DNA of 64,000 nucleotides, taken from positions 66,260-130,259 of IMG/VR virus record IMGVR_UViG_2974641675_000001; one strand, 5' to 3'. The translations under genes were made by a program, and so were the position numbers. Source of the DNA: a virus. Shown here piece after piece: positions 4,535 to 23,738 of this stretch (its first letter is position 1; every line of letters begins with the position of its first letter). Below the pieces are notes generated by a model that was not told where the DNA came from, did not search any database, and saw only the letters and a list, made by a program, of their open reading frames with translations.

Positions 4535-4622
4535 AATTAGTGTTTTTCTGCGATGTGTGAAAAGTGAGAAGACGATAGGTGGAAAACTCCTACACACTAT
4601 CGCCTTCCGGGTAAATTCCCCA

Positions 4623-6858: not shown

Positions 6859-7491
6859 ATGGCATTGATCCCACCGGTTGGTACATCCGGCATTTATAAG
6901 CTCGATGCTCCGTTCGCGGCGCAGTTGCAGCCCAACATGTCGTATCGTTGCGACGCCATTCGTCGTCTCTCGGACTTATTGGAACTGGGGATCGATCCCT
7001 TCGCTGAGTTCTACGACAAGAATGGGCTGACGAAAGAGAAGTACGACGCAGACGTGGTAAACCAAGTTTGCATGATTTCTCTGGTGTCGTCAAGCGGTCA
7101 CTGGTTGTATGTACCGTCGACCTACGTACTGGCCTACCCCGATCTCAACGGAGTGCCGTACACGGTGATGGTGCTGGGCTTGGAATTGGGTGCTATTCCC
7201 AATTACAAGGACCTGACTGGTCTGAAACAAGCTCTGGCCAATCTGACGCGCGATACGATTGGCGTGATGCCGACTGTAAAGGAGGTGGCCGTTTCGGCTG
7301 TCTCGAAGCTTTCTCAGGCTGATGCGGATGCCTTGGAAGCTGCGCGGCAGCAGTTGATCACCAACTCCCAAACGGACCGTGCTAAGTTACTGGCAGTGCA
7401 GCAAGCATATGCTTCCCTGCAACAACAGTATGCAGCGCTCGAAGCATACGTCCAGCAACACGCACTGACCCAAGCACCAACCTCGCCATAA
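6859..7491 (+). CDS. Hypothetical/virion protein with a C-terminal coiled coil
   Basis: GGAGG RBS; Ala/Gln-rich helical C-terminus. Confidence 0.65.
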   Translation: MALIPPVGTSGIYKLDAPFAAQLQPNMSYRCDAIRRLSDLLELGIDPFAEFYDKNGLTKEKYDADVVNQVCMISLVSSSGHWLYVPSTYVLAYPDLNGVPYTVMVLGLELGAIPNYKDLTGLKQALANLTRDTIGVMPTVKEVAVSAVSKLSQADADALEAARQQLITNSQTDRAKLLAVQQAYASLQQQYAALEAYVQQHALTQAPTSP

Positions 7492-7501
7492 GCAACATAA
7501 A

Positions 7502-7534
7502 GCCAGGAGGGGAAACCCTCCTGGCTCTTATGCC
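7502..7534. repeat. 33-bp exact repeat hairpin (copy 1; copy 2 at 11092-11124)
   Basis: GCCAGGAGGGGAAACCCTCCTGGCTCTTATGCC is identical at both convergent junctions. Confidence 0.85.
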
Positions 7535-7542
7535 CTTGAAGA

Positions 7543-8502
7543 TTAATCGTTGTCGGTTCCATCCAGATGACCGTGGAAGACTGGAGCAGTAACATCACCT
7601 TCGAATACGGCATCGCCCGTGGCACGAATCTTACCGTTAAGTACGATGTCGCCACCGGAACCATCCGCAGCACCGGTCGTCATACCCTGCGCAATCGCCA
7701 AGCTACCGCCAACGATAGCGTTGCTACCGGACTGGAAGATCTCGGTGGTAATCAGCTGCGGCGTCACGAAAGTAGCTTTCGCTGCTTTAGTAGCGTATTC
7801 ACCTTCTACAATCAAGTTGTACTTCCCTTTCACATTGGTGGTAAAGTCACCCTCAACGTTGATTAGGAGATCTTTACCATCCAGATTAATGAAGGTGCCG
7901 TCGGCATTCTTCAAAAGCATCCGTTTAGCGCCGGAGTCCCAGTGGAAGACGTTTTCGATCGTATCGAGGAACTGGAGCAGACCGTCTTTGGTGTTGATCG
8001 AGATGTCGTAGCCGTAGGGTTCGCCATCAGCTTGCGAGGTATGGAACCGTACCTGCTTGGTATGCGTCGAGATTTCCAAGAAGTAGGTATTATCCTCTCC
8101 AGGAGTAGCGTTCTCATCCTGCGTGCCGCTGAAGCCGAAGATCACTGTTTCCAGCTTACGGAATTTCTCTTCGTACTCACATTCACTCCAGTAATACTTG
8201 TCCGCATCTGCAAACTTCCAGATACAGACCTTTTCGCCCCGGCGTACGTCCGGTGCAGTCTTACGATTCGAGCTGAATGGTAACCACCGCGCTGTCAGCG
8301 TAGCGGACTGGTGAACCGTAGTTTCAAATGAGGCACCGTCGGCATCGGTGCCCTTGTTGTTTGTAGAGGTAAGGTTGTCGGTCAGTTCCCCGTTTGTCAT
8401 GGGAAGCTGCTCCATCGGTGTTACCTGAATCTCTTTCGACGACAGCAGCTTGTTCGCCGCAACAATGCCGTACGAATACATGACAAGCTTGCTTGATTCC
8501 AT
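7543..8502 (-). CDS. Baseplate central spike protein (phiKZ gp164-like)
   Basis: N-terminal OB-fold-like region (PDVRRGEKVCIW), beta-helix-like repeats (INVEGDFTTNVKGKYNLIVEG) and C-terminal HxH metal motif FHGHLDG; start MESSK at 8502. Confidence 0.7.
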   Translation of the reverse strand: MESSKLVMYSYGIVAANKLLSSKEIQVTPMEQLPMTNGELTDNLTSTNNKGTDADGASFETTVHQSATLTARWLPFSSNRKTAPDVRRGEKVCIWKFADADKYYWSECEYEEKFRKLETVIFGFSGTQDENATPGEDNTYFLEISTHTKQVRFHTSQADGEPYGYDISINTKDGLLQFLDTIENVFHWDSGAKRMLLKNADGTFINLDGKDLLINVEGDFTTNVKGKYNLIVEGEYATKAAKATFVTPQLITTEIFQSGSNAIVGGSLAIAQGMTTGAADGSGGDIVLNGKIRATGDAVFEGDVTAPVFHGHLDGTDND

Positions 8503-8595
8503 TGCGTATCCAGAAGAAGGCCAGAGAGTAGGATTTAACACTTTCTGGCAATTTATTGTTGGTAGTATGCACCAAAAACTCAAAGAATTGATCCA

Positions 8596-11088
8596 ATGAA
8601 AATCCTCGAACTCGAACTCGATCTCTACAAGAGGTTGACGAAGGTGGCGCACATCCGTCACTTCAAGCTGACATTGAAAGAAATCGTGCAGTTGATCTTG
8701 GGGACAAATGGTTCGGGCAAAAGCTCTATTCTCTACGAACTGTCGCCTCTCCCAGCTAACCACAAGGCTTACCATAAAGGTGGTAAGAAGCGTGTCCTGA
8801 TTGCTCATCAGAACAAGATGTACGAACTCATCTCTGATTTTGCAAACGGGCAAGACCACTACTTTTATGTTGATGGTGAAAACCTGAACACAGGTCGCAC
8901 CGTCACCATTCAAAAGGAACTGGTCAAAGAGCACTTCGGTATCACGTTTGAGACTCATGAGCTGCTGCTGGGTTACGAGCAGTTCTCCAAGATGTCTCCG
9001 GCACGTCGTCGTGAACTCTTTACGATGCTGTGTGTGGTGGATTACACCTATGCCATCAAGCTGTACCAGAAAATCCAAGTTGCGATGCGCGACGATGTCG
9101 GTACGCTGAAGAACCTCAAGAAGCGCCTGGTCACGGAAACAGCGAATGCGCTGAAAGACGAAGAGATCACTGGTCTGCGTGTGCGCCTAGCTGAGCTGAA
9201 TCGCGAATCGCAAGCAATGTACATGCTGCGTAACGCTAATGCTCAGACCACCTTCGATGCGCGCACGGTAGCTGAAGCCGCCAAGAAGACTATCGATGAC
9301 CTGTTGCAGAAGTTTCGCTCGGTGCGCTCGATTCTGCGCGATAAGTGTTGGATCACGCCAGACGAATATCAGGAAGACATCGACAGTCTGCGCGCTGAAC
9401 TGCATGGTATCGAAGGTGTCTATGCTCGTGCGTCGGAAGAGTTCATCAAGGCTTCTTCCGAGGTTGAGCAGGTTTCTGGGCTCGAAGCAGAAGATGTCAC
9501 CAAGCTGCAAGACGAAATCATCGCTTCGAACAAAAAAGCACAGAGCTTGCTGGAGACGCGTAAACGGCCTCTGGAGGGCTTTAAGCCTTTGGCAGCCTCG
9601 CAGTCTATGGAACTGGTCTACGAGTCGTTATACAGCGTTCTAACCGAGCTGCCGGCCGATCCTGAGGGACAAATGTCGTCCCAAGCATTGAGCGAGGTGT
9701 CAGAGCGCTTGCGCTTGGTCGAAATGTCGATCAGTGCCAACCGCGAGAAGCTGTCTGGTCTCGAACATCGGGAAAAACATCTGGTCGATCTGGCGAGTTC
9801 GGAGGACATCAATTGTCCAAAGTGCGAACACTCATTCAAGATGGGTTACTCGGTTGGGGAGCACGAATCGATCAAGACGCGTATCGCGGCAGGGCGCAAT
9901 CACATCGAAGCACTAGGCAAAGAAGCTGCTGCTTTGAAGGAACAGCAAGAGCGGCTTAGCAACTACGCCAGTCTTTATAAGGAATACGTGCGCATCACTC
10001 GTAACTCGCCAGAACTGCAACCGTTGTGGGATCTGATCGTCGAGGAAGACGCTCTGCGTCGTTCGCCTCAGCATGCTCTGACGCTGATCGAACTGGTACG
10101 CAGCGATCTGCGTATCGAGATGCAGGTAAATGCGATCTATGAAAAGATTGCGACCGACGATCACCGACTGAAACTCGCACAGTACGCTCAGTCCGAAGCC
10201 ATCAAGACCAAGAAGCAACGTTTGGAACAGTTGGAACAGGAAATCGGTCGTCTGTCGAAGCAGAAGGTCTGGGTACAGGGTCGTCTAAGCGATCTGGTTC
10301 GCACTCAGCAGCAGATCAAGCACATGTACGAGGTCGGCGACCGGATGGCAAAGGCCAAGGAAGAGTTCACCAAAGCTTCCTACGCAATTATCGATGCTGT
10401 CAAGAATGAGATCATCGATGAAGCGCTAGCTGAGACTCATCGCGAGATTGCTACGCTGTCGACGCGTATCCACTCGATCGACCAACACGAGACACTGATC
10501 AATGATCTGAAACAGCAGATCCAAAATCACGAGAAATCAGAAAAGGCTTACAAGGCCTTGGCTGACGCTCTGTCTCCGACTGATGGTCTGATCGCTGAAG
10601 GGATGCTGGGCTTCATTCGCAACTACGTGGCGCGGATGAACGCACTAATCGCTAAGGTGTGGACGTACAAAATGGAAGTGCATGACTGCTCGACCGAGGA
10701 CGATTCCGCGGAACTGAACTACAAGTTCCCAGTGACAATCGGTAACGATCCAGAACCAGTGCCTGATGTTGCTGATAGCTCATCTGGTCAAGAGGAAATG
10801 CTGAACCTAGCATTCCGCGTCGTGGCCGCGCAGTGTCTCGGTCTGGATAAAGGTCCGCTGCCATTGGATGAGTTTGGTAAGACCTTCGATGAAAGCCATC
10901 GCGAAGCTGCGACCAACGTCGTGCGTCAGCTGATTGAACAACTGAGCTTCTCGCAGTTGTTTATGATCTCGCACTACGAATCGAGCTACGGAGCATTCTA
11001 CAATGCTCAGATGTCAGTCATCGATAAGCGCAATATCACTGTACCAGTTAACCGCCGGTATAACGAGTTCACTGAACTAGCAGCATAA
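8596..11088 (+). CDS. sbcC: SbcC/Rad50-like SMC ATPase
   Basis: Walker A GTNGSGKS, coiled coil, zinc hook CPKC, signature SSGQ and Walker B LDEFG. Confidence 0.9.
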   Translation: MKILELELDLYKRLTKVAHIRHFKLTLKEIVQLILGTNGSGKSSILYELSPLPANHKAYHKGGKKRVLIAHQNKMYELISDFANGQDHYFYVDGENLNTGRTVTIQKELVKEHFGITFETHELLLGYEQFSKMSPARRRELFTMLCVVDYTYAIKLYQKIQVAMRDDVGTLKNLKKRLVTETANALKDEEITGLRVRLAELNRESQAMYMLRNANAQTTFDARTVAEAAKKTIDDLLQKFRSVRSILRDKCWITPDEYQEDIDSLRAELHGIEGVYARASEEFIKASSEVEQVSGLEAEDVTKLQDEIIASNKKAQSLLETRKRPLEGFKPLAASQSMELVYESLYSVLTELPADPEGQMSSQALSEVSERLRLVEMSISANREKLSGLEHREKHLVDLASSEDINCPKCEHSFKMGYSVGEHESIKTRIAAGRNHIEALGKEAAALKEQQERLSNYASLYKEYVRITRNSPELQPLWDLIVEEDALRRSPQHALTLIELVRSDLRIEMQVNAIYEKIATDDHRLKLAQYAQSEAIKTKKQRLEQLEQEIGRLSKQKVWVQGRLSDLVRTQQQIKHMYEVGDRMAKAKEEFTKASYAIIDAVKNEIIDEALAETHREIATLSTRIHSIDQHETLINDLKQQIQNHEKSEKAYKALADALSPTDGLIAEGMLGFIRNYVARMNALIAKVWTYKMEVHDCSTEDDSAELNYKFPVTIGNDPEPVPDVADSSSGQEEMLNLAFRVVAAQCLGLDKGPLPLDEFGKTFDESHREAATNVVRQLIEQLSFSQLFMISHYESSYGAFYNAQMSVIDKRNITVPVNRRYNEFTELAA

Positions 11089-11129: not shown

Positions 11130-11684
11130 TTAGACAGCAGGTGCTGCGTACTCATTGAAACCATTGATGTCAGGATTGCCAATCAATGGCCCGCCTTCCA
11201 ACCATTCGGTGTTTGGCTTGAAGGTTGTTCCGTTGATCCAGAGCAGGGACTCCGGATGGGCTTGCAGCCTGAGACCCTTGTAGACATCGTCCAGCGTCAG
11301 GTACTCGTAGTCGATTATGTCATCTGCCGCAATCGGATATGGCAAGATTCTATTAATCTGCTCCAGAACGTCCGAGATCTTGAACGGCAGGTGCGTTGGC
11401 GAGACGTGGTGCAGATCACTGTTGCTGACGTGGTTGAGAATGCATCGACGGCGATACAGGAAGCCTGAGCCTTTTACCCAGTAACGATCGTCATATTGCT
11501 GATCAACCTGACAAGGGATAAACGTATTGGGGTCGGTATCAAGATCCTTTCGTGGGTCGACCTCTTGCGGTTTTCCGAACTTGACCTTCTCCAGCGGGAT
11601 AACTTGCCCTGTCGCCTCAAAGATCAAATACAGTAAAACTTGTTCACGACTCTTACCGACGTCGTGAGCGTCGATAACTACCAT
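11130..11684 (-). CDS. Hypothetical (probable virion) protein
   Basis: AGGAG RBS; 184-aa ORF in the structural block. Confidence 0.65.
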   Translation of the reverse strand: MVVIDAHDVGKSREQVLLYLIFEATGQVIPLEKVKFGKPQEVDPRKDLDTDPNTFIPCQVDQQYDDRYWVKGSGFLYRRRCILNHVSNSDLHHVSPTHLPFKISDVLEQINRILPYPIAADDIIDYEYLTLDDVYKGLRLQAHPESLLWINGTTFKPNTEWLEGGPLIGNPDINGFNEYAAPAV

Positions 11685-11704
11685 TTATTTCTCCTGAGCG
11701 GGCG

Positions 11705-12961
11705 TTAGGTGTTGGGAGTGATCACAACCTTTTCGGACTGCACATCCAGGAAGTGGGCGTAGCTGTACGATTCTCGGTTATACGGGATGCGGTTGTCGGC
11801 AGGCATCGTAGCCTGACTTGCCGGTGTAGTGTGGAATAGCCGGTGATGGTAGATGTTGTCACCTACAGTCACCGAAAAGACGCCATCGTCTTCCTGTACC
11901 CAGTACGGCCACAGCAGACCGAAACCACCGACGAGCGGTAGAGACGGTTCGTCAAAAGCCAGATACTGTTTGGCAATTTGGGTAGGCGCCAGTTGTTGAC
12001 GCTCAACGACCACTTTGGGGCTATCGATGAGAACCAAGAAACTTTGAGACATTGTCAACCAGTTGGTCAACACGGCATCACTGTAGAGCTGATCGCGAGA
12101 GATCTGAGCATCGTGAGCACCGTTGTACTCCAATCCCAGATTCGACATGTCGATCAGTGCGCGGGATTCGTAGAAACGATCCAACAGTGGCACGGACTGA
12201 GTGTCCAGACAGAAAATGTCATCCGCAGTGCGGAAGAAGCTCAAGCCATCCAGCAAGAACAGATAACCACCCATCACCAACGCCACAGTCTTACCCTGAG
12301 CCTCAACTGGACTCTTGATAAAGATCTGATTAGCGAACGGCTGATCGGAATGAGCGCGGAACAGCATATCGGCAGTAATCGTCACACAGGTCAACTCGCC
12401 AATGTCTTGGAAGTTGATGATGCCGACTTCATTACGACGGCTGAGATAATTGCTCTTACCAGCATCGATTACGTAGATGTACTGGCTGTCAGCATCGACA
12501 CGGTGGATCAGACCGTTGATCGAGACCAAGCAATTCTTATGGAAAACCCGGGCATCAACACCGGGCTTCGACATGATGAGACAATCTGCCTCATCAGGCT
12601 GGGGAATCGTAGTCGGACTTTGCAGATAACGACCGCGCTCCAGCTGATAACCTGCCCAGTAGGCGTCAGCATACTTGATGCTGCCTTTAGCGATCGAGGC
12701 AATGCCGTTAGTCGACGGCAGCGTGTTATTGCCTTGTGCGGCAAAGAACTGTGCCAGTGTCTGGTCGCGCTGTACGTAGCCGCTGGTGATCTCACCAAAG
12801 CGCATCGTACGATCGCTAGTCCAGAATGGATTGCTGACGCGCAGGTAAACATCCGAATACGCGCTGTCGATTTGAGACAGCGTCAAAGTGCTCAGATCCA
12901 CCTCAGCCCAAGCTGTCCCGGCGGCCATGAGTTGTGCAATTGCAGAGACCAGTTGATACAT
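11705..12961 (-). CDS. Probable virion/baseplate structural protein
   Basis: 418-aa ORF from MYQLVSAIA; structural context. Confidence 0.65.
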   Translation of the reverse strand: MYQLVSAIAQLMAAGTAWAEVDLSTLTLSQIDSAYSDVYLRVSNPFWTSDRTMRFGEITSGYVQRDQTLAQFFAAQGNNTLPSTNGIASIAKGSIKYADAYWAGYQLERGRYLQSPTTIPQPDEADCLIMSKPGVDARVFHKNCLVSINGLIHRVDADSQYIYVIDAGKSNYLSRRNEVGIINFQDIGELTCVTITADMLFRAHSDQPFANQIFIKSPVEAQGKTVALVMGGYLFLLDGLSFFRTADDIFCLDTQSVPLLDRFYESRALIDMSNLGLEYNGAHDAQISRDQLYSDAVLTNWLTMSQSFLVLIDSPKVVVERQQLAPTQIAKQYLAFDEPSLPLVGGFGLLWPYWVQEDDGVFSVTVGDNIYHHRLFHTTPASQATMPADNRIPYNRESYSYAHFLDVQSEKVVITPNT

Positions 12962-13157
12962 GAGAAAACTCCGTAAGAGTGCGTTTTTCCGCTTTTTATG
13001 CGGTTTAAAATGGCTCAAATAATGTGATCTACTATTAGGCTAAGTAGTATTTTTATACGACCAATGCCCTCCGTTCCCACGGCGGAAGGAGGCGGTGGTC
13101 CGCGTGGACGTCTTGGCCGACAAGTATTCCGAGACATCATCAAAGGACGATTGTTCA

Positions 13158-14762
13158 ATGGCTACCGCTTACCAGTATCCGTTCGATCCCAGCGGCACTT
13201 CGTCTGCCAACCGGATCTTGAACGAGCAGCATGTCATCACCGCTGCAAACTTTCGGGATTACCACTACGTAATCCCGAACTTTGCCCCTTTCTTTGAGGG
13301 CGACTTCGACATCAAAATGCAGTTTCCTGATGGCTCGATTCGTCCTCTGACGCAAGGCGTCGACTTCTACTTCTCGAACCAGTTCTTGGACGCTTCGCGT
13401 GCCTGTGCGAAGCCTGTCTATGGTTCGATCTCGTTCCTTGACACCGATACCGCCGGTATCCTGTCGATCAACTACAACACTGTTGGTGGCGAGTGGAACA
13501 TCTCGCCGACAGAAATCTCGCGTATCTTGGCCGAAGAGCTGCGCAACCCCCGTATTACGACCTGGGAACAAATCACGTATTTACCGGAACGTTTCCCGGT
13601 AGTCGATCACGCGTGGGATCTGATCGACATGGTGGGTATGTCTCCGGTTGTGGCTGCCATCGAAGCACTGCGCGACGCGGTTGTGACGAAGAACGGTGGT
13701 AACTTCACCGATCACATCAACAACTACTCGAACCCGCACAACACCACGGCGGCGCAAGTAGGGTTGGGCAATCTGTTCAACTATCCGATTGCTACGACGG
13801 CTGATGCCCAGGCTGGCACGAGTAACTCGTTCTACATGACACCCGCGCGTGTCAAGGACGAAATCATGGCATTCGCTACGCCGCTGTCGCACTTGACGGA
13901 TTACACCAATCCGCACCAAGTGACAAAGACCCAGGTGGGGCTGAGCAATGTGGCGAACTTCGCAGTTTCGACCACGGCAGAAGCTCAAGCAGGTGCTGTT
14001 GATACGTCTTACATGACGCCGCTGAAGACAGCACAAGCCATCACGCAGCAGGCCGGTTCAGCGCTCGCAGCTCATGTTGCGAACCAGCAGAACCCGCACA
14101 ACGTGACGAAAGATCAGGTTGGCTTGTTCAACGTCCAGAACTATCCGATCGCTACGCAACAGCAAGCGATGGCTGGTACGGACAACGCCTCGTACATGAC
14201 GCCGCTGCGCACAGCACAGCTGGTAGCTCAGATCTCTTCAGTGGCGCTACAGAACCACTTGAATGACTTTACCAACCCTCACCAAGTGACGGCCGGTCAG
14301 GTGGGTCTTGGTAATGTGCAGAACTACGGTATCGCTACTCAGGCTGATGCACAAGCCGGCGTGAGCAATACGCTGTACATGACGCCGGGTCGTGTCGCTG
14401 ATGCCATCAATGCACTGGCTACGCCGCATGCTCACTTGCTGGATATGAACAATCCGCACCAAGTGACCGCGGCTCAAGTCGGCGCATACACGACTACTCA
14501 GACGGATACGCTGTTGGGTGGTTACGTGCGGCTGACCGATCAGTGGGTAGCGGGTGAAACCAAAGCTGCCTTCATTGCAGAAGTGCTGCAGGGTACGGCG
14601 AACAATGCTTCGATGGTTTACGGTTTCACGGAAGCCCAACTGGCCGCCGATCTCGAAACCAATTACTTCGATAACGCTTACGCCACCATTGCTGCATTCA
14701 ATGCATTGGCCCAGCGCGTGACCGACATCGAAACGGCCCTCAACAGCATCACCGTTGTGTAA
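13158..14762 (+). CDS. Tail fibre protein with NPH/QVGL repeats
   Basis: Four full and one partial ~55-60 aa repeats H-x5-NPHxVTxxQVGLxNVxNYxIAT...AG...YMTP; N-terminus paralogous to the next gene. Confidence 0.75.
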   Translation: MATAYQYPFDPSGTSSANRILNEQHVITAANFRDYHYVIPNFAPFFEGDFDIKMQFPDGSIRPLTQGVDFYFSNQFLDASRACAKPVYGSISFLDTDTAGILSINYNTVGGEWNISPTEISRILAEELRNPRITTWEQITYLPERFPVVDHAWDLIDMVGMSPVVAAIEALRDAVVTKNGGNFTDHINNYSNPHNTTAAQVGLGNLFNYPIATTADAQAGTSNSFYMTPARVKDEIMAFATPLSHLTDYTNPHQVTKTQVGLSNVANFAVSTTAEAQAGAVDTSYMTPLKTAQAITQQAGSALAAHVANQQNPHNVTKDQVGLFNVQNYPIATQQQAMAGTDNASYMTPLRTAQLVAQISSVALQNHLNDFTNPHQVTAGQVGLGNVQNYGIATQADAQAGVSNTLYMTPGRVADAINALATPHAHLLDMNNPHQVTAAQVGAYTTTQTDTLLGGYVRLTDQWVAGETKAAFIAEVLQGTANNASMVYGFTEAQLAADLETNYFDNAYATIAAFNALAQRVTDIETALNSITVV

Positions 14763-14814: not shown

Positions 14815-16092
14815 ATGACTATTCCGATCTATCGCTATCCCTTGGATGGCACCGGCACCAGCCCGGATAACCTGGTGGTTGGAGAAGAACACCAGCTCTC
14901 CAACCGAGCAATTCGTTGCGTAGCGCCGACCTACGGTGGCTTCTACGCTGAATCCGCAGTGGTGACGGACTTCAACACTGGCGTACCGCTGGTGCGCGGT
15001 GTTGACTACTACTTTGGTGAGCTGTTCGAGTTCCCCACTGGTCGTTACGGTAAGGAAATCTTCGGCCTGATCGTTATCACCAAGCCGAACGTTGCTGCCG
15101 TTTCGATCAATTACCAAGCACTGGGTGGTGATTACTCCTATTCCATGGACGCAATCATCGCCATGATCGACAACCTGAATCTGGACACGCGTCCGGTGGA
15201 ATGGGGTGCGATCATTGGTCGTCCGGCGCTGTTCGATCCGGCAACGCACTGGCACGATGCTGGTGACATCTACGGCTTCGAATACGTAGTGAGCGCGCTG
15301 ATCGATCTGCGCAACGCCATCCTGACGGGTGACGTGGCCAGCCACGATGAGATCTATCGCTACATCGATCGCTGGGCAGCTCAGCAGAGCGCGGCCATCC
15401 AAGCAGTTTCCGATGCACTGCACACGCACATCGTCGACTACACCAATCCGCACCAAACCACGAAGGCACAGGTAGGGTTGGGACTGGTGTCGAACTTTGC
15501 GACAGCGCTGCAAGCTGACATGAATACTGGTACGGCGAACAACCTGTTCGTGACGCCAGATATCGTTGCCGCGTACGTGACTCAGCAGGCAGTGAATCCG
15601 CTGCTTGCTCACATTGCCGACAAGGGTAACCCGCACCAGACTACCGCAGCACAAGTGGGACTGGGTAATGTCCAGAACTATGGTGTTGCTTCCCAGCCGG
15701 ACATGAATGCCGGTACGCGTGACGACGTCTATCTGACGCCGCTGAAGGTCGCGACCTATGTGACAAACGTCGCGGTTAACCCGATGAATGCGCACATTGC
15801 CAATACCAACAATCCGCATGCCGTGACACAGGCACAAGTTGGGTTGGGTAGTGTTGCGAACTATCCGGTCGCTACTCAGGCTGAAGCGCAAGCTGGAACG
15901 GCTAACAACCGCTACATGACTCCCTGGCTCGTAAACCAAGAAGTCATGCAGATGCTCAACAACGGTGCATTCGACGGTCGCTATATGCGGTATGGCACCG
16001 CCACTGATGGTTCGACCTGGGTTAGCGCTGGTATCGCCTACGTGTTCGTATCGGGAGCATGGCGACAGTTCTGGCCGCCTGTGTGGCAGTAA
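14815..16092 (+). CDS. Second tail fibre protein with NPH/QVGL repeats
   Basis: Three repeats of the same unit; N-terminus YRYPLDGTGTSPDNLV resembles YQYPFDPSGTSSANRI of the previous gene; aromatic C-terminus YVFVSGAWRQFWPPVWQ. Confidence 0.75.
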   Translation: MTIPIYRYPLDGTGTSPDNLVVGEEHQLSNRAIRCVAPTYGGFYAESAVVTDFNTGVPLVRGVDYYFGELFEFPTGRYGKEIFGLIVITKPNVAAVSINYQALGGDYSYSMDAIIAMIDNLNLDTRPVEWGAIIGRPALFDPATHWHDAGDIYGFEYVVSALIDLRNAILTGDVASHDEIYRYIDRWAAQQSAAIQAVSDALHTHIVDYTNPHQTTKAQVGLGLVSNFATALQADMNTGTANNLFVTPDIVAAYVTQQAVNPLLAHIADKGNPHQTTAAQVGLGNVQNYGVASQPDMNAGTRDDVYLTPLKVATYVTNVAVNPMNAHIANTNNPHAVTQAQVGLGSVANYPVATQAEAQAGTANNRYMTPWLVNQEVMQMLNNGAFDGRYMRYGTATDGSTWVSAGIAYVFVSGAWRQFWPPVWQ

Positions 16093-16100
16093 GAGATGTG

Positions 16101-16139
16101 AAAACCACTCCGCCCAAAAGGTGGAGTGGTTTTTATGTC
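16101..16139 (+). terminator. Hairpin/terminator after the second fibre gene
   Basis: AAAACCACTCC...GGAGTGGTTTT followed by TATGTC. Confidence 0.6.
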
Positions 16140-16167: not shown

Positions 16168-16545
16168 GTGGCCACCACCTCCTCTACAACCACTGATGTG
16201 CAAGGGTATGACATCAATACTCTCCGCAACACAATTAACAGTGTGCGGGCTCGTATTGCTGCTGGTCAACCCATCAGTGCCAACCAAATCGCTGACCTTG
16301 CTTGGGTGTACAACACTTGGATTCAGCATACCCACAACTACTACGACTATTACTGGATCGCTTACGGTAATACGTCTCCCTATGGCACCACTGCTGTATG
16401 GAAAACTTCTGGCAACGTTGGTGTAGGGTATTTCTCACCACCTGGGGCTGGACAAACTGTTCAAGCTGCTCATGTGAATGGCTTAGCGGGTCTGGTCAAT
16501 GCGATCCGATCCCATACCCACTATTCGCCGGACGGCAGTTACTAA
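16168..16545 (+). CDS. Small fibre-tip-like protein with two HTH (HxH) modules
   Basis: GTG start with AAGGA RBS; modules GQPISANQIADLAWVYNTWIQHTH and GQTVQAAHVNGLAGLVNAIRSHTH. Confidence 0.7.
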   Translation: MATTSSTTTDVQGYDINTLRNTINSVRARIAAGQPISANQIADLAWVYNTWIQHTHNYYDYYWIAYGNTSPYGTTAVWKTSGNVGVGYFSPPGAGQTVQAAHVNGLAGLVNAIRSHTHYSPDGSY

Positions 16546-16628
16546 ACATTCCGTTAGGTAAAAAAGCAAGTGCGTTTTTACCTATCATTCGATTTTTATA
16601 GTAATCCATTTCGAGGACGAATCCACCA

Positions 16629-16826
16629 ATGTCCAATTATCTCTCCACTGTAACAACGGCTGCGGCGCCAGCTAACACTGTGGGGCAAGGCCAAGCGGTA
16701 CAACCAGCCACGATGAACCAAATGGCTGCTGTACTGGATTCATTGCTGAGCCACACGCACGTCTTTTATGACAACTACGGCAGCAACTGCAATTGTAACT
16801 GCGCCTGCACCCGAGGATCTCTGTAA
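16629..16826 (+). CDS. Cys-rich putative RiPP precursor/modification target (65 aa; HTH module plus NCNCNCAC tail)
   Basis: GAGGA RBS; ends ...SHTHVFYDNYGSNCNCNCACTRGSL; TAATG coupling to the next gene; lies upstream of four radical-SAM genes. Confidence 0.75.
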   Translation: MSNYLSTVTTAAAPANTVGQGQAVQPATMNQMAAVLDSLLSHTHVFYDNYGSNCNCNCACTRGSL

Positions 16827-17713
16827 TGAAAACTGTCTTTATCAAAAGCGGCGGCTACTACGAAACGCCAGGTGTCGCTGTCTCCGGCGCTATCAACGAC
16901 GCCTTCGACTTCAACGTGAGTCAGCATTGCCGTTCGAATGCGCTGTTCATGCTCGACTATGTCAGTCGCGAATACCGCCTCAGCCTTACCGTTGCCTCTG
17001 GTGACATGAAAGATGCGTTCGCGCGTCTCGACATGGATCTGATCACCAAGGCCGCGGAAGAGCATGGCTTCTCTTATGTCGGCCTGGTGGCTGACGAAAA
17101 GGCGATGATGGCTCGCCCGGATGAATTCCTGCGCGACTTGTCCGTCGTGACCGTCTGCAAGGAAACCGGCAAGTTCCTCGATGCCAAGTCCGGCACCGCT
17201 CTGACCGGCAACAACATCACACCGGTGATCTACTGCGTGAAGATGGCTGACAGCACGTACGCCATGATCCTGAGCCAGATGGCCAACGTGATGCCGAGCA
17301 TGGTCGACAATCCGAAGGTGGGTCGTGACGACATGAACGTCATCGTGGTCAATGACGGCGATGCCATGCGTAGTCAGTTCGTGGACGTCAGCTTCCACGG
17401 CGCTACCAAGCATTTCCGCAACAACGACCTCGTTACTGGTTTCGCAGTGTTTGCTTGGCCGAATGCTCTGATTGAAGTTAATATCTTCAAGGACACGCCG
17501 CTCGCCGCTGAGTTCAAGAAGAACTTCGAACTGGAAGTCGACAGCAGCTTTGATGCCAAGATCGTCGACGGCAAGGTCGTTATCCAGATGCCGCCTTCGT
17601 GTCGCACTGGCTATCTGTCGATCAAGCTGAAGACCACACCGCTGTACGAAGACGTCTCGTCGCGCGAGATCAAGGAAATGCTTTCGTTCGACTTCATCGT
17701 GACGGTTGTTTAA
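16826..17713 (+). CDS. Orphan 295-aa protein translationally coupled to the Cys-rich peptide
   Basis: TAATG overlap and strong C-ending codon bias; no motif recognised. Confidence 0.75.
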   Translation: MKTVFIKSGGYYETPGVAVSGAINDAFDFNVSQHCRSNALFMLDYVSREYRLSLTVASGDMKDAFARLDMDLITKAAEEHGFSYVGLVADEKAMMARPDEFLRDLSVVTVCKETGKFLDAKSGTALTGNNITPVIYCVKMADSTYAMILSQMANVMPSMVDNPKVGRDDMNVIVVNDGDAMRSQFVDVSFHGATKHFRNNDLVTGFAVFAWPNALIEVNIFKDTPLAAEFKKNFELEVDSSFDAKIVDGKVVIQMPPSCRTGYLSIKLKTTPLYEDVSSREIKEMLSFDFIVTVV

Positions 17714-17782: not shown

Positions 17783-19396
17783 ATGCAAGAACAAGTTATC
17801 AAAATCCATCGCAAGAAAGAACCCATCGACTTCAAGAAACCCGGGGAGCGTATCAAAACCATCGCCGAGGTCAAGGACATTCTGTTCGCTGAACTGAAAG
17901 TCCTGAACGTGATCCTGACCAACGCCTGCAATCTCTCGTGTAGCTACTGCTTCGAACAGCACAAACAGGACTACGGCAAGTTCACCCAAGAACAACTGAA
18001 GCAAGTGTATGACTTCCTGCTGAACGCCAACACTCAGCCGCATCGCCACTTCCAGTTCTTTGGTGGTGAGCCGTTGGCGCAGAAGAAGAAGATCCTCGAC
18101 TTCTGTCGCGACCACAAGGACGAACTCTCGGCCAACAAGGAGCAGGTGCGTGTGTCGATCGTGACCAACGCGCTGCTCCTGACACCGGAATTCATCGAGG
18201 AATACTGCAGCTACGATTTTACGTCGCTGGTCATTTCTTTGGACACGGATGATGCCGAGTCGAACCGTCGCGAACTGACGCAAGAGAACATCGACTACAT
18301 CTTCGAGATGATCAAGCTGTTGCCTGACTCGATGATGCGCGATGCTCACCACGTCTCGATTCGTTGCACCATCAACGAAGAGAGCGTACCGCACCTCGAT
18401 CGCTTCATGGAGCGTCTGTATGCGTCCGGCGTGCGCAATTTCGTGATCCATCCGCTGATCCTCGCTAAGGATCAAGGCGCCATTGAATGGCAGCCGGGTA
18501 TGTGGGAGCGGATGTACCATTCACTGCATCAAGCCATGCATCGCTGGGACGACTTCAAGATCACCTGGGCCGAAGGCGTGGGTGTGAAAGGCGAGTCCAA
18601 CTGCATGGTCGGTTCGGACATGATTGCGATGGACGCCTCGGGTGACTTCAGCGGTTGCTACTTCCTGACCAACCTGAAAGAAACCTACGGCAACACGATG
18701 CTCGGCAATCTGTTCCGCGACGAGATCTACATCGATCGTTACGTCGAGTTCCAGCAAGCCTATGCCAAGTCGCTGGAACACGAACAGTGCCAGTCGTGCC
18801 ACCTCAAGAACTTCTGCTACCAGTGCCCGGCTGGTAATGCAGCTACTGGTGGTTCGCTGTTCCGTCCGGACTCGATGTGCAAGCGCATTGTGGAACTGTT
18901 CCTCACTCTGCGTCAGGACTTCAACCGTAAGGCTTTGCTCCAACAGTTCAAGGAGCTGGAAGAAGCTGTTGTCCAGCAAGGTCCGATTGCTCAGTCTCGT
19001 GCAGTGCTGCATTGCATCTACCGCGAGTTCACTGGTGAGATTCAGGACAACGCCATCATTGACGCTTATGAAGAACTGCCGGCACCGCACACGCTGCTCT
19101 TCATGTTCAAGCAAATGCTGGAAGGCGGTTTGACTAGCATTCCGCCGCTCGACGTGTGGGTGTCTGGACTACTGCGCCGCAACCCTCGTCCGGAGGAAAG
19201 CATCGATCCGTACGAGTTCTACCTGTTCTTGTGCAAGCTACGTGGTATCCCGATCGATTTCAAATACACTCCGAATGGTTCTGTTCAAGAGCAGAACTAC
19301 TTTATCACCCTGACTCACTTGCTGATTTTCGATGAAAGTCGTTATCTCAGCAAATACGATCCGGAACACAGCCGGTCTCGTATTCTCGACCTGTAA
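17783..19396 (+). CDS. Radical SAM/SPASM-domain enzyme with a C-terminal extension
   Basis: CNLSCSYC (CxxxCxxC), FFGGEP, SPASM cysteines NCMVG..SGCYF..CQSCHLKNFCYQC..MC. Confidence 0.9.
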   Translation: MQEQVIKIHRKKEPIDFKKPGERIKTIAEVKDILFAELKVLNVILTNACNLSCSYCFEQHKQDYGKFTQEQLKQVYDFLLNANTQPHRHFQFFGGEPLAQKKKILDFCRDHKDELSANKEQVRVSIVTNALLLTPEFIEEYCSYDFTSLVISLDTDDAESNRRELTQENIDYIFEMIKLLPDSMMRDAHHVSIRCTINEESVPHLDRFMERLYASGVRNFVIHPLILAKDQGAIEWQPGMWERMYHSLHQAMHRWDDFKITWAEGVGVKGESNCMVGSDMIAMDASGDFSGCYFLTNLKETYGNTMLGNLFRDEIYIDRYVEFQQAYAKSLEHEQCQSCHLKNFCYQCPAGNAATGGSLFRPDSMCKRIVELFLTLRQDFNRKALLQQFKELEEAVVQQGPIAQSRAVLHCIYREFTGEIQDNAIIDAYEELPAPHTLLFMFKQMLEGGLTSIPPLDVWVSGLLRRNPRPEESIDPYEFYLFLCKLRGIPIDFKYTPNGSVQEQNYFITLTHLLIFDESRYLSKYDPEHSRSRILDL

Positions 19397-19409: not shown

Positions 19410-20492
19410 ATGAACTACGATAACATCCAGGACGTCTCGATCTATGTGGGTCCTGCGTGCAACTTCAACTGCACGTATTGTGATCGCGCCTACGTAAACA
19501 ACGTAGGTGTGGATTCTGCTGAATGCGATCCGGCCTTGGTCGACTTCGTAGTTGATGTGGTGCTGCACTCCGAGCGTCCGATGGTTTCCTTCCACGGTGG
19601 GGAACCATTTGTTTACATCAAGACCATGGAGAAGATCATCGAGGCCGTGCTCGAACGCGTACCAGATTTCAAGGAACGCGGCGCGATCTTCTTCATCCAG
19701 ACCAATGGCTCGCTGATTACCCGTCAGCGAGCTTTCTTCGAGAAATACAAAGAGGTGCTCTACGTGAGCATCTCTTACGACTTCAAGTACCAGGGCGATA
19801 ACCGCACTGCGTACGACATTGACTCAACCCTGCAACTCTTGAATGATCTGGGGATTGGGACGAACCTGCAATACGTGATTCCGACCTACGACAAGAACGC
19901 TTGCGATCACGCAGCGTACTCGGAAGTCATGCGGTTGTTCTCCAAGTTTAAGCTGGGGCAACTGAACCTGATCCTGTTGCGTCACATTCGGCAGGAAGAT
20001 AAATTCGAAACAGTGATCGCGGATGAGAGCATCGACCTAAAGGGATTCTTCCTCGGCTTCATGCGCTTCGTCCAGTTGCTGTACGTCTCAGGTATCAATG
20101 TCCACATCGACGGTCATGCCAACAAGATCGATAAGAACTATTACAACAACCATAAGCAAATGGTGCTCGCTCCAAATGGCCTGATCGTACCGGAGTACCA
20201 GTTCATCGAGTATGATGATTACGATTTCGCTATCGGTCGCTGGAAGCCTTACGTGGAGATCTCTCGTGATCAGATGCCGGAGAAGGCCGCCAAGAAGATT
20301 CGCAAAGAGTGCCAGACTTGTCCGATGGCGGACATCTGTGGTTTGCGTTATCACTACGCAATGTTCGATATGGACCCGCCAACTCCGCAACGGTGCAAGG
20401 AGTTCTACTCTCTGAACCTGATCGCGATCAAGCACCTGTACAAACTGAAAGAGCAACCCACCCTTCTCCACCATCTGGGAGTTCAGCAATGA
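19410..20492 (+). CDS. Radical SAM enzyme with a partial SPASM-type Cys cluster
   Basis: CNFNCTYC, FHGGEP, QTNG and C-terminal CQTCPMADIC...RC. Confidence 0.88.
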   Translation: MNYDNIQDVSIYVGPACNFNCTYCDRAYVNNVGVDSAECDPALVDFVVDVVLHSERPMVSFHGGEPFVYIKTMEKIIEAVLERVPDFKERGAIFFIQTNGSLITRQRAFFEKYKEVLYVSISYDFKYQGDNRTAYDIDSTLQLLNDLGIGTNLQYVIPTYDKNACDHAAYSEVMRLFSKFKLGQLNLILLRHIRQEDKFETVIADESIDLKGFFLGFMRFVQLLYVSGINVHIDGHANKIDKNYYNNHKQMVLAPNGLIVPEYQFIEYDDYDFAIGRWKPYVEISRDQMPEKAAKKIRKECQTCPMADICGLRYHYAMFDMDPPTPQRCKEFYSLNLIAIKHLYKLKEQPTLLHHLGVQQ

Positions 20493-21637
20493 GTCGCGCT
20501 ATCACGATCGAGAATCCGAAAGAGCACTTCATCCGTTACGACGGACTGCTCAACGTCCAGTATGACGTGACGTTTTCGATCTTCAAGAAGTACACCTGTC
20601 AAGCCGGGTGCAAGATCTGTTATATCAAGGATGACTTCCTGCCTAACGAGCAGTTCAAGAAGTATGTCCCGATAGCATCACACGTCAACACGCAGAGCTA
20701 CGGCGACCGCCTGCTAGAATTCCTGTCATACTTTCAGATGGCAGCAATCATCGACGACCTGTACTTTGTGCGGGAAGAACATCCGGAGCTGTACAAGTTC
20801 TATCAGGAGTATAGCGAGGCCTTCTGGCTGAGTTCCATGACGGACAACGCAGTGTTCCGTCACCTGCCGATTATTGAGGATGACCTTCGTGTCGTCGGTC
20901 TACGGGAGATCTCGCTCTCCGAGGAATTCTTGTATAAAGTCAACCAAACGAAGTTCTTTAACGCACTGGATAAAATTCAGAGGCGCGCTAAGATATTGAA
21001 AATAAAGGTAATACTGTCGGGTCTCCCTGGCATCGCGATTCGTGGCAACGATTTGATGCTCTGGTGTCAGAACAATCAAGTGCTCCTAGAGAAGCAATAC
21101 GAGCACGGTGTTGAGCCGAATGGCCGCAGCTTCCTGTCTCAGTTGCCGAACACGCGTTACAGCGATCGCAGCCAGGAAACGCACTTCACTGAAGAGATCA
21201 CCTACAGTGAGAATTCTGGTGAGATGCTGTACCCAATTCACTCTGAGTCGATCTTCTTGCAGTACGATGACTTCTACTCGGAGCTGAAGTCTGCCACGCG
21301 TGAAGACCGCAGTGCGCCGTTTGCCAAGCTGGATGATTTTGTCCAGAGTCCGCAAGGCTTCTTGGCTAAGGTGCTGGAAGGTAAGCTGACGGATTACCGC
21401 AAGTATGCTTCGTGGATGCAGAACAAAGATCACGACTACTTCCGTTACTTTGACTATGTGGCGAATAACGTGGTAGTCAATCATGACTTCAACTTCATCC
21501 CGCGTATCGCTCTGCGGCCAGATAGCGTGTACTATCACAAGCTGATGGAACACACGAAGCTGGTGGATACCCAATACGGGCTCGTGGATTCTGCCGCGAG
21601 CAAGGTCGTTCCAATTTACTCTTTCAGAGAACAATGA
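20489..21637 (+). CDS. Degenerate radical-SAM-like protein
   Basis: CQAGCKIC near the N-terminus but no GGEP and no SPASM cysteines; ATGA overlaps at both ends. Confidence 0.65.
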   Translation: MSRAITIENPKEHFIRYDGLLNVQYDVTFSIFKKYTCQAGCKICYIKDDFLPNEQFKKYVPIASHVNTQSYGDRLLEFLSYFQMAAIIDDLYFVREEHPELYKFYQEYSEAFWLSSMTDNAVFRHLPIIEDDLRVVGLREISLSEEFLYKVNQTKFFNALDKIQRRAKILKIKVILSGLPGIAIRGNDLMLWCQNNQVLLEKQYEHGVEPNGRSFLSQLPNTRYSDRSQETHFTEEITYSENSGEMLYPIHSESIFLQYDDFYSELKSATREDRSAPFAKLDDFVQSPQGFLAKVLEGKLTDYRKYASWMQNKDHDYFRYFDYVANNVVVNHDFNFIPRIALRPDSVYYHKLMEHTKLVDTQYGLVDSAASKVVPIYSFREQ

Positions 21638-22893
21638 GCATAAGCACATTCCGAATCGAGAAGTCGGGTGAAGTGTTTGGTTACGACAACACACTGAACT
21701 CGATCCTCGATGCAAACAACCAGCCTGTGGGTCGAGCTTCGTCTCTCCTGGCTCAGGCTCCGTCGTTCGAGAAATCGAATACTCCTACCACCATCAAGGT
21801 ACTGCTCGGGCACGCCTGTAACTACAGCTGCAGCTACTGCGTACAGAAGGACATCGGTAATCCGGCTGAACGTCCGAAGAACATCATGACCAAGGAGTTG
21901 ATCAAGAAGATGCGCGCGCATCTCGATCTCTCCAACGTCACGCGGATTGAACTGTGGGGCGGCGAGACGCTGCTCTACTGGCCGGATATCGTTGAGATCA
22001 TCTCAGCACTGGATCGGGAAGGCATTACGTGGTACATCCCGACCAACGGTACGATCCTGCGGATGAAGCACGCTGAGTTCTTCCGCCAGATGAAAGGCGA
22101 GATGACCATCGGCATCAGTCACGACGGTCCGGGTCACGTATCGCTGCGTGGTCCGGAGTTCCTGCATCGCAAGATCGATGAGTTGGGTGCGCTGCAAGAC
22201 GCCAAGGTACGGTTCAGCTTCAACGCTGTGATCAGTACCACGAACTACGATCTGTTTGCCATCGATGACTACTTCCGCTTCTTCCTGCTCAAGGCAGACC
22301 TCGATCACGTAGGGCTGGGCTTCGAGCTGGGGCGGACGTATGAGACGGGTGCTTGCGCTACCGAGTCGCACGTGATCACACTGGAGCAGATCCCGCACTA
22401 TCGGTCGATTCTGAAAGCGTATCTCAAGCACCATCTCGATGCGTTCAAGAAAGGTCAAGCGCCGGAAGACATCGATGCCGATACTCGACTGTTCAACAGC
22501 CTGTTCCATTTCAGCAATGGTGTGATTCCGTACGCGAAGTCGCTAGTTCAGCAAAGCCCCATTCGCTATTACAGCAACTGCGGCACTGATGATCCGAACC
22601 TGATCACGCTGGACATGAATGGCGCTATCCGCGTTTGTCAGAACACGGACGAGAGCTACATCTACGGCAACGTTGCTAATATCGGCGCTGCTAAGATGCA
22701 GAAGGTCGATTACAGCAAGAACGACTTCTGCAAGGACTGCTCGGTTTTGCGGCTGTGCAATCGTAGCTGCCCGATCGAACTGCCATACGAAACCTTTTTG
22801 ACCAACCACCATATCGAGAACGCTCACTACAGCGAGATACAACTCTCGGCGTTTGAGTTGTTGTTCGATAGCCCTATCACCAAAGTGAACTGA
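21634..22893 (+). CDS. Radical SAM/SPASM-domain enzyme
   Basis: CNYSCSYC, WGGET, PTNG, SHDG and SPASM NCG..VC..CKDCSVLRLCNRSC. Confidence 0.9.
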   Translation: MSISTFRIEKSGEVFGYDNTLNSILDANNQPVGRASSLLAQAPSFEKSNTPTTIKVLLGHACNYSCSYCVQKDIGNPAERPKNIMTKELIKKMRAHLDLSNVTRIELWGGETLLYWPDIVEIISALDREGITWYIPTNGTILRMKHAEFFRQMKGEMTIGISHDGPGHVSLRGPEFLHRKIDELGALQDAKVRFSFNAVISTTNYDLFAIDDYFRFFLLKADLDHVGLGFELGRTYETGACATESHVITLEQIPHYRSILKAYLKHHLDAFKKGQAPEDIDADTRLFNSLFHFSNGVIPYAKSLVQQSPIRYYSNCGTDDPNLITLDMNGAIRVCQNTDESYIYGNVANIGAAKMQKVDYSKNDFCKDCSVLRLCNRSCPIELPYETFLTNHHIENAHYSEIQLSAFELLFDSPITKVN

Positions 22894-22901
22894 GAAAACT
22901 C

Positions 22902-23738
22902 ATGTCCGACATTCTTGACCGTTTTGTCCTGCCCGAAACTGCAGCCCAAGTTACCGAGCTGCGCGCCCAGCTGGACGCGATGAAGAACCATCGTGTCTTC
23001 GGTATGGTGAAAACCATCGACGACCTGCAAACCTTCATGTCGCTCCACGTCTACGCCGTGTGGGACTTCATGACGCTGGCCAAGCGCCTGCAGTGCGAGT
23101 ACACCGGCATCAAGTTCCCGTGGGTGCCGCCGCGCCTCCCCAAGGTCGCCCGTCTGATCAACGAGATCATCCTGGCCGAAGAGTCCGACGACAACGGTGA
23201 GGGCGGTACTTGCAGCCACTTCGAACTGTACGCCATGGCCATGCAAGAAATCGGTGACATCGACATGGAGTCGCTCGAAGCATTCGTAACGAACCTTCGT
23301 TACGGTATCCCGCCGGTGGAATCTGCTAACCGTGCACTGATCAAGGCCGATCCGGAGTTCCGTGCGACTGTCACCAACTACATCGGCGATACTACTGCCG
23401 TGGCTCGCACTGGCCTGCCGGAAGAAGTGCTGGCCTACTTCGTCTTTGGTCGTGAAGATTCGATCCCGGCGATGTTCAGCAACCTGCTTGAGCAGATGGG
23501 TGATCTGGCTGCCAAAGCGACGACCTTCACGTACTACTTGAAGCGCCATATCCAACTCGACGGTGAAGACCACAGTGTCAAAGCTGCTGAGATGCTGTCG
23601 CTCGAACTGGAAGGCAATCCGATTCGCACGCGCACCGCACTGATCGCTGGTATCAATGCCGCCAAGTCCCGCATTGCTTTGTGGGATGCGATTGCTGCGA
23701 AGCTGGAAGCAACTCAAGCAGCGACGGCAACTGCCTAA
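22902..23738 (+). CDS. DUF3050 / heme-oxygenase-like di-iron enzyme
   Basis: Motifs HVYAVWDFM, WVPP, RLINEIILAEESD, SHFELY, GREDSIPAMF and YYLKRHIQLDGEDH recognised as the DUF3050 pattern. Confidence 0.8.
   Translation: MSDILDRFVLPETAAQVTELRAQLDAMKNHRVFGMVKTIDDLQTFMSLHVYAVWDFMTLAKRLQCEYTGIKFPWVPPRLPKVARLINEIILAEESDDNGEGGTCSHFELYAMAMQEIGDIDMESLEAFVTNLRYGIPPVESANRALIKADPEFRATVTNYIGDTTAVARTGLPEEVLAYFVFGREDSIPAMFSNLLEQMGDLAAKATTFTYYLKRHIQLDGEDHSVKAAEMLSLELEGNPIRTRTALIAGINAAKSRIALWDAIAAKLEATQAATATA

Follow-up and report, generated by a model that had tools for sequence, protein, structure and literature searches.

A Cysteine-Tailed Phage Peptide as a Probable Integral Part of a Proposed Three-Module Protein Associated with a Tail Fibre

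The DNA analyzed here, referred to as the window, is a stretch of 64,000 nucleotides from a viral genome (IMG/VR record IMGVR_UViG_2974641675_000001, positions 66,260 to 130,259), in which two small genes lie between a tail-fibre gene and a cassette of radical S-adenosylmethionine (radical-SAM) enzyme genes. The first of them, at 16168..16545 (GTG start, AAAGGAA upstream), encodes a protein of 125 amino acids (aa) known in Ralstonia phage RP12 as ORF74, a "predicted ORF" (open reading frame). The second, at 16629..16826 (ATG start, GAGGA upstream), encodes a 65-aa peptide composed of a variable linker, a module of 28 residues and a Cys-rich tail. All window genes named below are located on the plus strand. 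The window belongs to the giant Ralstonia phage RP12, under whose name the 125-aa protein is entered in BFVD.

The sequences of the peptide and of its relatives suggest that it is not a throw-away leader but probably an integral part of a protein associated with the fibre. According to the preferred reading, whose chances of being right are put at about even, the two gene products make up a three-module unit, fibre-associated and probably shaped as a four-helix bundle, in which the peptide provides the third module and its CxCxC tail serves as the substrate of the radical-SAM enzymes. This reading is carried by the homology of the modules, their constant sum of three per locus, natural fusions, the link between tail and cassette, the synteny with fibre genes, and a confidently predicted new fold.

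The Repeated Module

Two copies of the module are present in the 125-aa protein (module 1, GQPIS...HTHNYYD, 16264..16347; module 2, GQTVQ...HTHYSPD, 16450..16533, ending three residues short of the C-terminus) and one in the peptide (module 3, GQAVQ...HTHVFYD, 16689..16772). An earlier note, made from the DNA letters alone, had claimed that these copies align without gaps across both small proteins, and this was confirmed, with pairwise identities of 10, 9, and 12 out of 28 residues. The pattern G-x20-HxHxxxD was matched three times among the 128,000 residues of the six-frame translation of the window, every time within these two ORFs. Residue shuffles of the window gave a mean of 0.29 matches, and three were reached in 0.3% of the shuffles. 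The motif HxHxxxD by itself was common, with 7 occurrences in the window versus 5.0 ± 2.1 expected. No module copies beyond these three were found in the whole genome of 279,845 bp, the published length of the RP12 genome (PMC5468394).

When the peptides were compared as a family with the two-module proteins by hhalign, the probability was 97.3% (E 1.8e-11, 39 columns). Conservation of the alignment in homologues, a test set in advance, held as well: residues H54, H56, H116, H118, and D122 were invariant in 74 two-module homologues, with D60 conserved in more than 90% of them, and G21, H42, H44, and D48 were invariant in 21 peptides. The same trio of modules was found in the syntenic relatives L001 (54% identical) and L006, and across the nine copies from these two loci and the window, invariance was limited to the two His residues and the Asp. 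The consensus originally proposed, GQ-x11-x8-HTH-x3-D, was retained in its two His and its Asp, while the Q of "GQ" varied (SR, GN, SK, GA, and GT in relatives) and the middle position of HxH was free, being occupied by T, Y, N, S, K, R, or other residues.

Judged by these comparisons, the module found twice in the neighbouring protein recurs, as a third homologous copy, in the N-terminal part of the peptide. A cupin reading of module 1, whose HxH-x3-D-x6-G resembles cupin motif 1, was dismissed, as the confident model of the protein is helical.

Module Number per Locus

A profile of nine module copies was used in an exhaustive search of 1.84 billion cluster representatives (E <= 1e-3). The search returned 120 protein clusters, essentially all viral, of which two look like false positives. 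The largest class comprised about 75 two-module proteins of 116–160 aa without Cys, followed by about 20 one-module peptides of 53–97 aa, most of them ending in ...DDYGT-CxCxCxC-C(T/S)RGxL. In a third class, module 2 was fused to the peptide module and tail (P0028, P0051, P0109), and in a fourth, three modules were joined in one tail-less chain (P0017, P0039, P0040, P0047). Members of the fifth class were enlarged, either by long stretches inserted between modules 1 and 2 or by C-terminal extensions.

Loci were found by a search with the peptide alignment, and 39 loci were fetched from IMG/VR. The peptide is kept in more than 40 loci, and the two-module gene was present in 37 of the 39 fetched with the peptide pattern. 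The number of modules per locus was always three, distributed as 2+1 (the usual case), as 1+2, or in a single three-module chain. The 1+2 split was found in L009, which encodes an 84-aa one-module protein together with the 120-aa P0028 (two modules and a tail). All three modules were combined in one tail-less chain in L051, L052 (two tandem copies), and L054. This constant sum favours one heteromeric three-module unit over homotrimers. The tandem genes of L052 (9306-10666) encode proteins of 231 and 221 aa, 31% identical to each other, and sit directly 3' of a gene for a 441-aa fibre ending in NNWKKVWPATYS.

The module system is judged from these searches to be phage-only. Among 185,579 genomes of prokaryotic species, the peptide pattern had a single match, on a 25-kb contig of a metagenome-assembled genome with the full cassette, and the nearest Atlas clusters were 100% viral. 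No cultured phage outside the lineage of the window was matched: tblastn against phage records gave no match for the 125-aa protein, chance-level matches for the peptide (E 4–6), and only distant radical-SAM genes for enzyme 1 of the cassette. Pfam and NCBIfam contained no match for the 125-aa protein, whose sole match in PHROGs was phrog_31780 (function unassigned), and no NCBIfam match was obtained for the peptide. In the literature on phage radical-SAM peptides, no description of this system was found, nor was any public sequencing run listed.

Association with Tail Fibres

The gene preceding the two small genes, fibB (14815..16092), encodes a 425-aa tail fibre corresponding to RP12 ORF73 "YomR" (phrog_2163, E 6.6e-145). 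Its product ends in ...GAWRQFWPPVWQ, i.e., in AWRQFWPPVWQ. In about 13 kinds of locus, including the window, the gene just upstream of the two-module gene ended with the motif G.W(R/K)Q(I/V/F)(W/Y/F)P(A/P).(Y/W), and the proteins with this C-terminus ranged from mini-fibres of 87–90 aa up to fibres of 520 aa. Other neighbours were a long-tail-fibre distal subunit, a baseplate wedge together with a 1117-aa fibre, and T7-tail/YadA-stalk-like fibres. In L054, the three-module protein was paired with close homologues of fibB and of its paralogue fibA. By gene order, the unit is thus tied to tail-fibre genes across several unrelated phage lineages. The homology of the modules, the tail-less fusions, and this synteny bear out the suggestion of the earlier note that the peptide's "leader" is really a structural module with a link to the fibre.

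A related fibre without the unit was found in Ralstonia phage FLC1-1B (L056). Its gp74 (7332-9011) is 72% identical to fibB over fibB residues 4-342, and beyond the shared region it carries a Peptidase_S74 intramolecular chaperone domain; the phage itself has no HxH unit. By sequence, the difference between FLC1-1B and RP12 resembles an exchange of distal modules in the fibre. The next gene after gp74, gp75 (187 aa), had no family match.

Relatives of the 125-aa protein carry PF21722 Gly_rich_2 or other domains between modules 1 and 2. The insertion site corresponds to the predicted hairpin between the modules, insertions of about 260 aa occur, total lengths range from 125 to 484 aa, and some members have C-terminal additions. 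Such whole-domain insertions fit a display scaffold. In the two-module proteins P0049 and P0033 (488 and 451 aa), the C-terminal extensions matched Hint/Hom_end_hint (2.6e-9 for P0049) and may represent an intein or a self-processing domain.

A different role for the unit at the same place would be that of an assembly chaperone only, which binds the C-terminus of fibB during folding, replaces Peptidase_S74, and is absent from the finished virion. The position directly 3' of a fibre gene is typical of Tfa/gp38/gp57-type chaperones, and FLC1-1B has an S74 domain where RP12 has an alternative fibre end and the HxH unit. Moreover, the orthologue of the 125-aa protein, ORF70, is missing from the mass-spectrometry list of RP31 virion proteins. 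However, that list of 32 proteins also lacks the adjacent YomR-like fibre ORF69, and large variable insertions (Gly_rich_2 and others) combined with an elaborate modification of the tail would be unexpected of a transient chaperone. A purely transient role is consequently considered unlikely, although it stands marginally ahead of the other alternatives.

Cysteine Tail and Radical-SAM Cassette

The tail of the window peptide (NYGSNCNCNCACTRGSL, 16773..16823) is of a type found in the 39 loci, in which a conserved DDYG leads into CxC repeats, one to six in number and with N, Q, E, D, A, or T as x, and then into a terminal C(T/S)RGxL. The cassette that follows in the window begins with a 295-aa protein without assigned function (16826..17713) and radical SAM/SPASM enzyme 1 (537 aa, 17783..19396; PF04055 at 1e-19). 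It continues with radical SAM enzyme 2 (360 aa, 19410..20492; PF04055 at 6.7e-11), a 382-aa protein conserved across loci and without a family match (20489..21637), radical SAM enzyme 3 (419 aa, 21634..22893; PF04055 at 1.6e-10), and a DUF3050/HamA heme-oxygenase-like protein (22902..23738; PF11251 at 2.2e-68).

A short Cys-containing peptide adjoining a radical SAM/SPASM enzyme was present in the window and in 38 of the 39 related loci. In all 38 loci with sufficient downstream flank, the peptide was followed by enzyme 1, and, flank permitting, enzyme 2, the 382-aa protein, and enzyme 3 came next. The DUF3050 protein was present in about half of the loci; in L009, a 2-oxoglutarate (2OG)-Fe(II) oxygenase takes its place.

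No cassette was present in the visible flanks of the tail-less loci L052 and L054, in the latter case including 10 kb downstream; the visible downstream flank of L051, also tail-less, was only 0.4 kb. Locus L053 encodes a 2+1 pair in which the peptide lacks any cysteines, and its enzyme 1 (3136-4157) is broken into two fragments (214 and 93 aa), so that the cassette appears to be decaying. The peptide of L055, with a single Cys (..DDCSRGTL), retains enzyme 1. From this distribution, it is concluded that the radical-SAM cassette goes with the Cys tail and not with the module, and that the three-module unit is able to work alone. The three-module forms lacking both tail and cassette are the main argument that the module is not a mere leader.

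The best NCBIfam model was PapB both for enzyme 1 (3.7e-36, 125 bits, cut-off 340) and for enzyme 2 (1.2e-15), and every other maturase model for peptides made on ribosomes and altered after translation (RiPPs) scored far under its cut-off. Alignments to SCIFF, nif11, QhpD, HxsB, and CefB began only at profile positions 75–100 (protein residue ~27–40), which indicates that the usual N-terminal leader-binding domain, similar to the RiPP recognition element (RRE) or PqqD, is absent from the enzymes. No protease, exporter, or transporter family was found in the cassette by Pfam and NCBIfam scans. Based on the chemistry of PapB, QhpD, and NxxC, it is a reasonable inference that the tail acquires thioether links from Cys to the interleaved Asn, Gln, Asp, or Glu. 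Assignment to the His-Xaa-Ser (Hxs) system (HxsB, 61 bits versus a cut-off of 370) or to the CXXX-repeat system (TIGR04114/TIGR04115; Cys spacing here is CxC, and TIGR04115 gave 48.6 bits versus a cut-off of 350) was rejected.

The 295-aa protein was a conserved member of the cassette, encoded either directly before or directly after the peptide. Its phmmer matches were confined to nearer loci (L001–L008, L029, L050), and in distant loci an ORF of 300–340 aa without a sequence match occupied its position. It had no match in Pfam or NCBIfam, and Atlas gave only sub-threshold leads to Ig-like or glycan-binding proteins. In L006, an inserted 353-aa ORF (3890-4951, minus strand) separates the peptide gene from the 300-aa gene; a GIY-YIG-like N-terminal motif, judged by eye, indicates that the ORF probably encodes a homing endonuclease. 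In L036, the cassette itself contains the two-module gene (11359-11730), flanked by the 382-aa-like gene and the gene for enzyme 3, and enzyme 1 is preceded by the peptide.

The cassette would also suit a classical phage RiPP, in which a leader and a Cys-rich core are cross-linked, cut, and released at lysis as an antimicrobial or a signal, the 125-aa protein acting as a PqqD/RRE-like scaffold, a chaperone, or a second substrate. In favour of it, the short peptide lies directly 5' of radical-SAM/SPASM enzymes whose best models are PapB, SCIFF, and QhpD, its core is rich in Cys and contains acceptor residues, and tail and cassette co-occur. However, three-module chains and 2+1 pairs without tail or cassette give the module a role independent of the enzymes, and the supposed leader is conserved as strongly as the core. 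The cassette also lacks a protease or exporter, and the maturases lack a leader-binding domain. Furthermore, the two-module protein accepts insertions of about 260 aa, and the synteny with fibre genes is conserved. A released RiPP ranks just behind the chaperone and is likewise improbable.

A pathway of the pyrroloquinoline quinone (PQQ)/mycofactocin type, in which three radical-SAM enzymes together with an oxidase would excise and tailor the YDDYG/Cys region and the 125-aa protein would be the carrier, would account for several radical-SAM enzymes beside an O2-dependent oxidase (DUF3050 or 2OG oxygenase) and for a near-invariant core, but it meets the same objections as the RiPP, and a CxC repeat number varying from 1 to 6 is unexpected for a defined cofactor, which makes it highly implausible.

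Predicted Structures

The AlphaFold2 model of the 125-aa protein, for which 74 homologues were used, was a compact monomer with a predicted local distance difference test score (pLDDT) of 93.5 and a predicted template modelling score (pTM) of 0.82. It contains helices at residues 16–29, 38–51, and 100–112 and a hairpin formed by residues 57–63 and 75–80, and each HxH follows the helix of its module.

Foldseek searches of the PDB and BFVD with this model returned only the protein itself, clusters of the AFDB showed no resemblance, and no meaningful match came from the Atlas. A profile search of PDB sequences gave nothing under E 0.67. In VIA-align, the best Z was 4.9, below the meaningful level, and no fibre tip was among the matches. 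Neck domains of TssK/IglD recurred at Z 4–5, which is under the meaningful level, and they were kept as a lead only. As modelled, the 125-aa protein is a confident new fold without a solved relative.

The three-module chain P0047 was modelled from an alignment of five sequences, yielding four helices at pLDDT 80–89, low-confidence linkers, and a pTM of 0.60. The nearest solved shapes were four-helix bundles (Z 4–6). Four helices in a bundle-like shape fit the assumption that the helix of the peptide completes a bundle.

A His pair resembling that of the peptide was noticed within fibB itself. At 15247-15276, fibB encodes HWHDAGDIYG, which has the same HxH-x3-D-x-YG form as the HTHVFYDNYG of the peptide, and H.H...D.YG had no match other than these two in the six-frame translation of the window. 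RP12-like homologues of fibB conserve the motif (L001, with F for Y; L006; L007; L054; FLC1-1B gp74), and fibres from other lineages do not. The shaft of the fibre may thus contain an ordinary HxH site of the homotrimeric kind.

The earlier note had regarded the module as a trimerising segment akin to the HxH tips of T4 gp37 or of phage spikes. Trimers of this kind, homotrimeric or mixed, would hold octahedral Fe on six His residues at a threefold axis, as in the T4 gp37 needle. The invariant HxH with a free middle residue is indeed reminiscent of HxH sites on beta-strands, and the conserved motif of fibB has the form found in the peptide. Nevertheless, the copies total three per locus and not per chain, and the 125-aa protein was confidently modelled as a compact monomer. 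Kinship with the gp37-type or spike-type tips found no backing either in PDB sequences or in folds, and the model, helical with one hairpin, is not the intertwined homotrimeric beta-structure of a beta-helical needle. Trimers of the needle type are accordingly regarded as very unlikely.

The Three-Module Unit

In the preferred reading, the 125-aa protein and its 65-aa neighbour would be two physically associated pieces of one fibre-associated unit. The unit would be built from three homologous modules, in each of which an amphipathic helix leads into HxH-x3-D. From the 125-aa protein would come an N-terminal helix, module 1, the beta-hairpin, and module 2, and residues ~21–48 of the peptide would contribute module 3, probably completing a four-helix bundle. 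The three His-His-Asp sets would most likely act as metal ligands or form a buried polar network. Metal binding by the modules is plausible, given that none of them varies in its His-His-Asp set whereas the residue between the two His is free.

The assembled unit would sit on the distal end of fibB, or help it fold, in the manner of an adhesin or chaperone of the gp38/Tfa type, and may be present in the virion. The Cys-rich tail (CxCxCxC...CTRGxL) would be an optional extension and a substrate of the three radical-SAM enzymes, probably becoming cross-linked by thioethers between Cys and the interleaved Asn, Gln, Asp, or Glu.

A more far-reaching version, in which the host-contacting part of the fibre is a pseudo-threefold, metal-binding helical unit encoded by two genes, with a small subunit bearing a Cys-Asn/Gln/Glu knot made by three radical-SAM enzymes and an oxidase, can be offered only tentatively and is clearly less probable.

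Several observations weigh against the unit as proposed, in addition to the absence of ORF70 from the RP31 virion list. A strong terminator-like hairpin of 20 pairs (16095..16139, same strand) follows fibB and stands between it and the two small genes; a comparable hairpin trails fibB of L001. In T4-like loci, the peptide and cassette are located 2–3 kb from the two-module gene, with genes on the opposite strand between them. The model of P0047, for which five sequences were available, is weak as a whole (pLDDT 57.9). Finally, the bundles it matched are of the up-down type, in which case the three HxH would not all lie at one end; if this topology holds, the idea of a single site of six His residues is weakened.

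Further Features of the Locus

The peptide gene is absent from the published RP12 annotation, where it falls in the gap between ORF74 and ORF75, and it was overlooked by gene callers in L001 too. The 125-aa gene and the peptide gene are separated by an AT-rich hairpin (GGTAAAAA...TTTTTACC) at 16558-16583. This hairpin is below the strength required by the terminator scan, and the relative expression of the two genes may be affected by it.

The fibA paralogue of fibB is a 555-aa ORF at 13095..14762, assigned to phrog_2163 "virion structural protein" (E 2.7e-145) with matches to many other tail-fibre PHROGs, and it contains NPHxVTxxQVGL repeats. Its true start is probably the ATG near 13158.

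Significance

If the preferred reading is correct, the "precursor peptide" accompanying a widespread and phage-only radical-SAM cassette stays in place as a permanent fibre-associated subunit, and radical-SAM peptide chemistry extends beyond secreted natural products and enzyme cofactors to the architecture of the virion. The modules would then also define a new protein family of 120 clusters without a Pfam or NCBIfam model and with a confident fold that has no solved relative. Under the more far-reaching version, should it prove true, RiPP chemistry would mature a structural virion protein whose fold and metal site are both unprecedented.

The natural splits (2+1, 1+2, and 3) offer a ready system for protein complementation studies. 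The unit would also provide a handle on host recognition by large uncultured phages and by RP12 and RP31, which infect the plant pathogen Ralstonia solanacearum. For genome mining, labelling each small peptide beside a radical-SAM enzyme as a leader-core RiPP can lead to error.

Comparison with Known Systems

Iron sites of the HxH type are known in trimeric phage fibre and spike tips, namely the T4 gp37 needle, gp12, and the apex of P2 gpV and phi92 gp138. The unit described here resembles them in its invariant His-x-His with a free middle residue, in the three copies, and in the tail-fibre region. In contrast to these homotrimeric beta-structures, the HxH here follows an alpha-helix, the copies come from one or two chains, an invariant Asp is present at +4, and no similarity in sequence or fold was found.

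In quinohemoprotein amine dehydrogenase, the small subunit QhpC is cross-linked by the radical SAM/SPASM enzyme QhpD and stays in the complex. A small Cys-rich polypeptide, a SPASM enzyme, a permanent structural subunit (proposed here), and Asp/Glu-like acceptors are features in common. The differences are a phage fibre context, three radical-SAM enzymes with an oxidase and no dehydrogenase, and a score for QhpD (TIGR03906) of 74 bits versus a cut-off of 453.

PapB ranthipeptide maturases (NF047865; PMC12373016) gave the top model for enzymes 1 and 2, and the alternation of Cys with Asn, Gln, Asp, or Glu in the tail corresponds to the kind of acceptor used by PapB-like enzymes. On the other hand, the score of 125 bits falls below the cut-off of 340, the spacing is CxC and not CX3D, and the "leader" is a folded homologous module. 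In the CXXX repeats of TIGR04114/TIGR04115, Cys occurs at every fourth residue, whereas here it occurs at every second.

Fibre adhesins and chaperones encoded 3' of fibre genes include gp38 of T-even phages and Tfa of lambda and Mu, the gp38 adhesins bearing glycine-rich motifs. The unit differs from them in its three-module split architecture, in the involvement of radical-SAM enzymes, and in having no similarity to them in Pfam or PHROGs; it is like them in that its gene comes directly after a fibre gene and that relatives carry glycine-rich inserted domains (PF21722). Peptidase_S74 (PF13884), a self-cleaving domain at the C-terminus of the fibre chain itself, has no homology to the HxH unit, but in FLC1-1B, whose fibre is 72% identical, it takes the equivalent place at the distal end.

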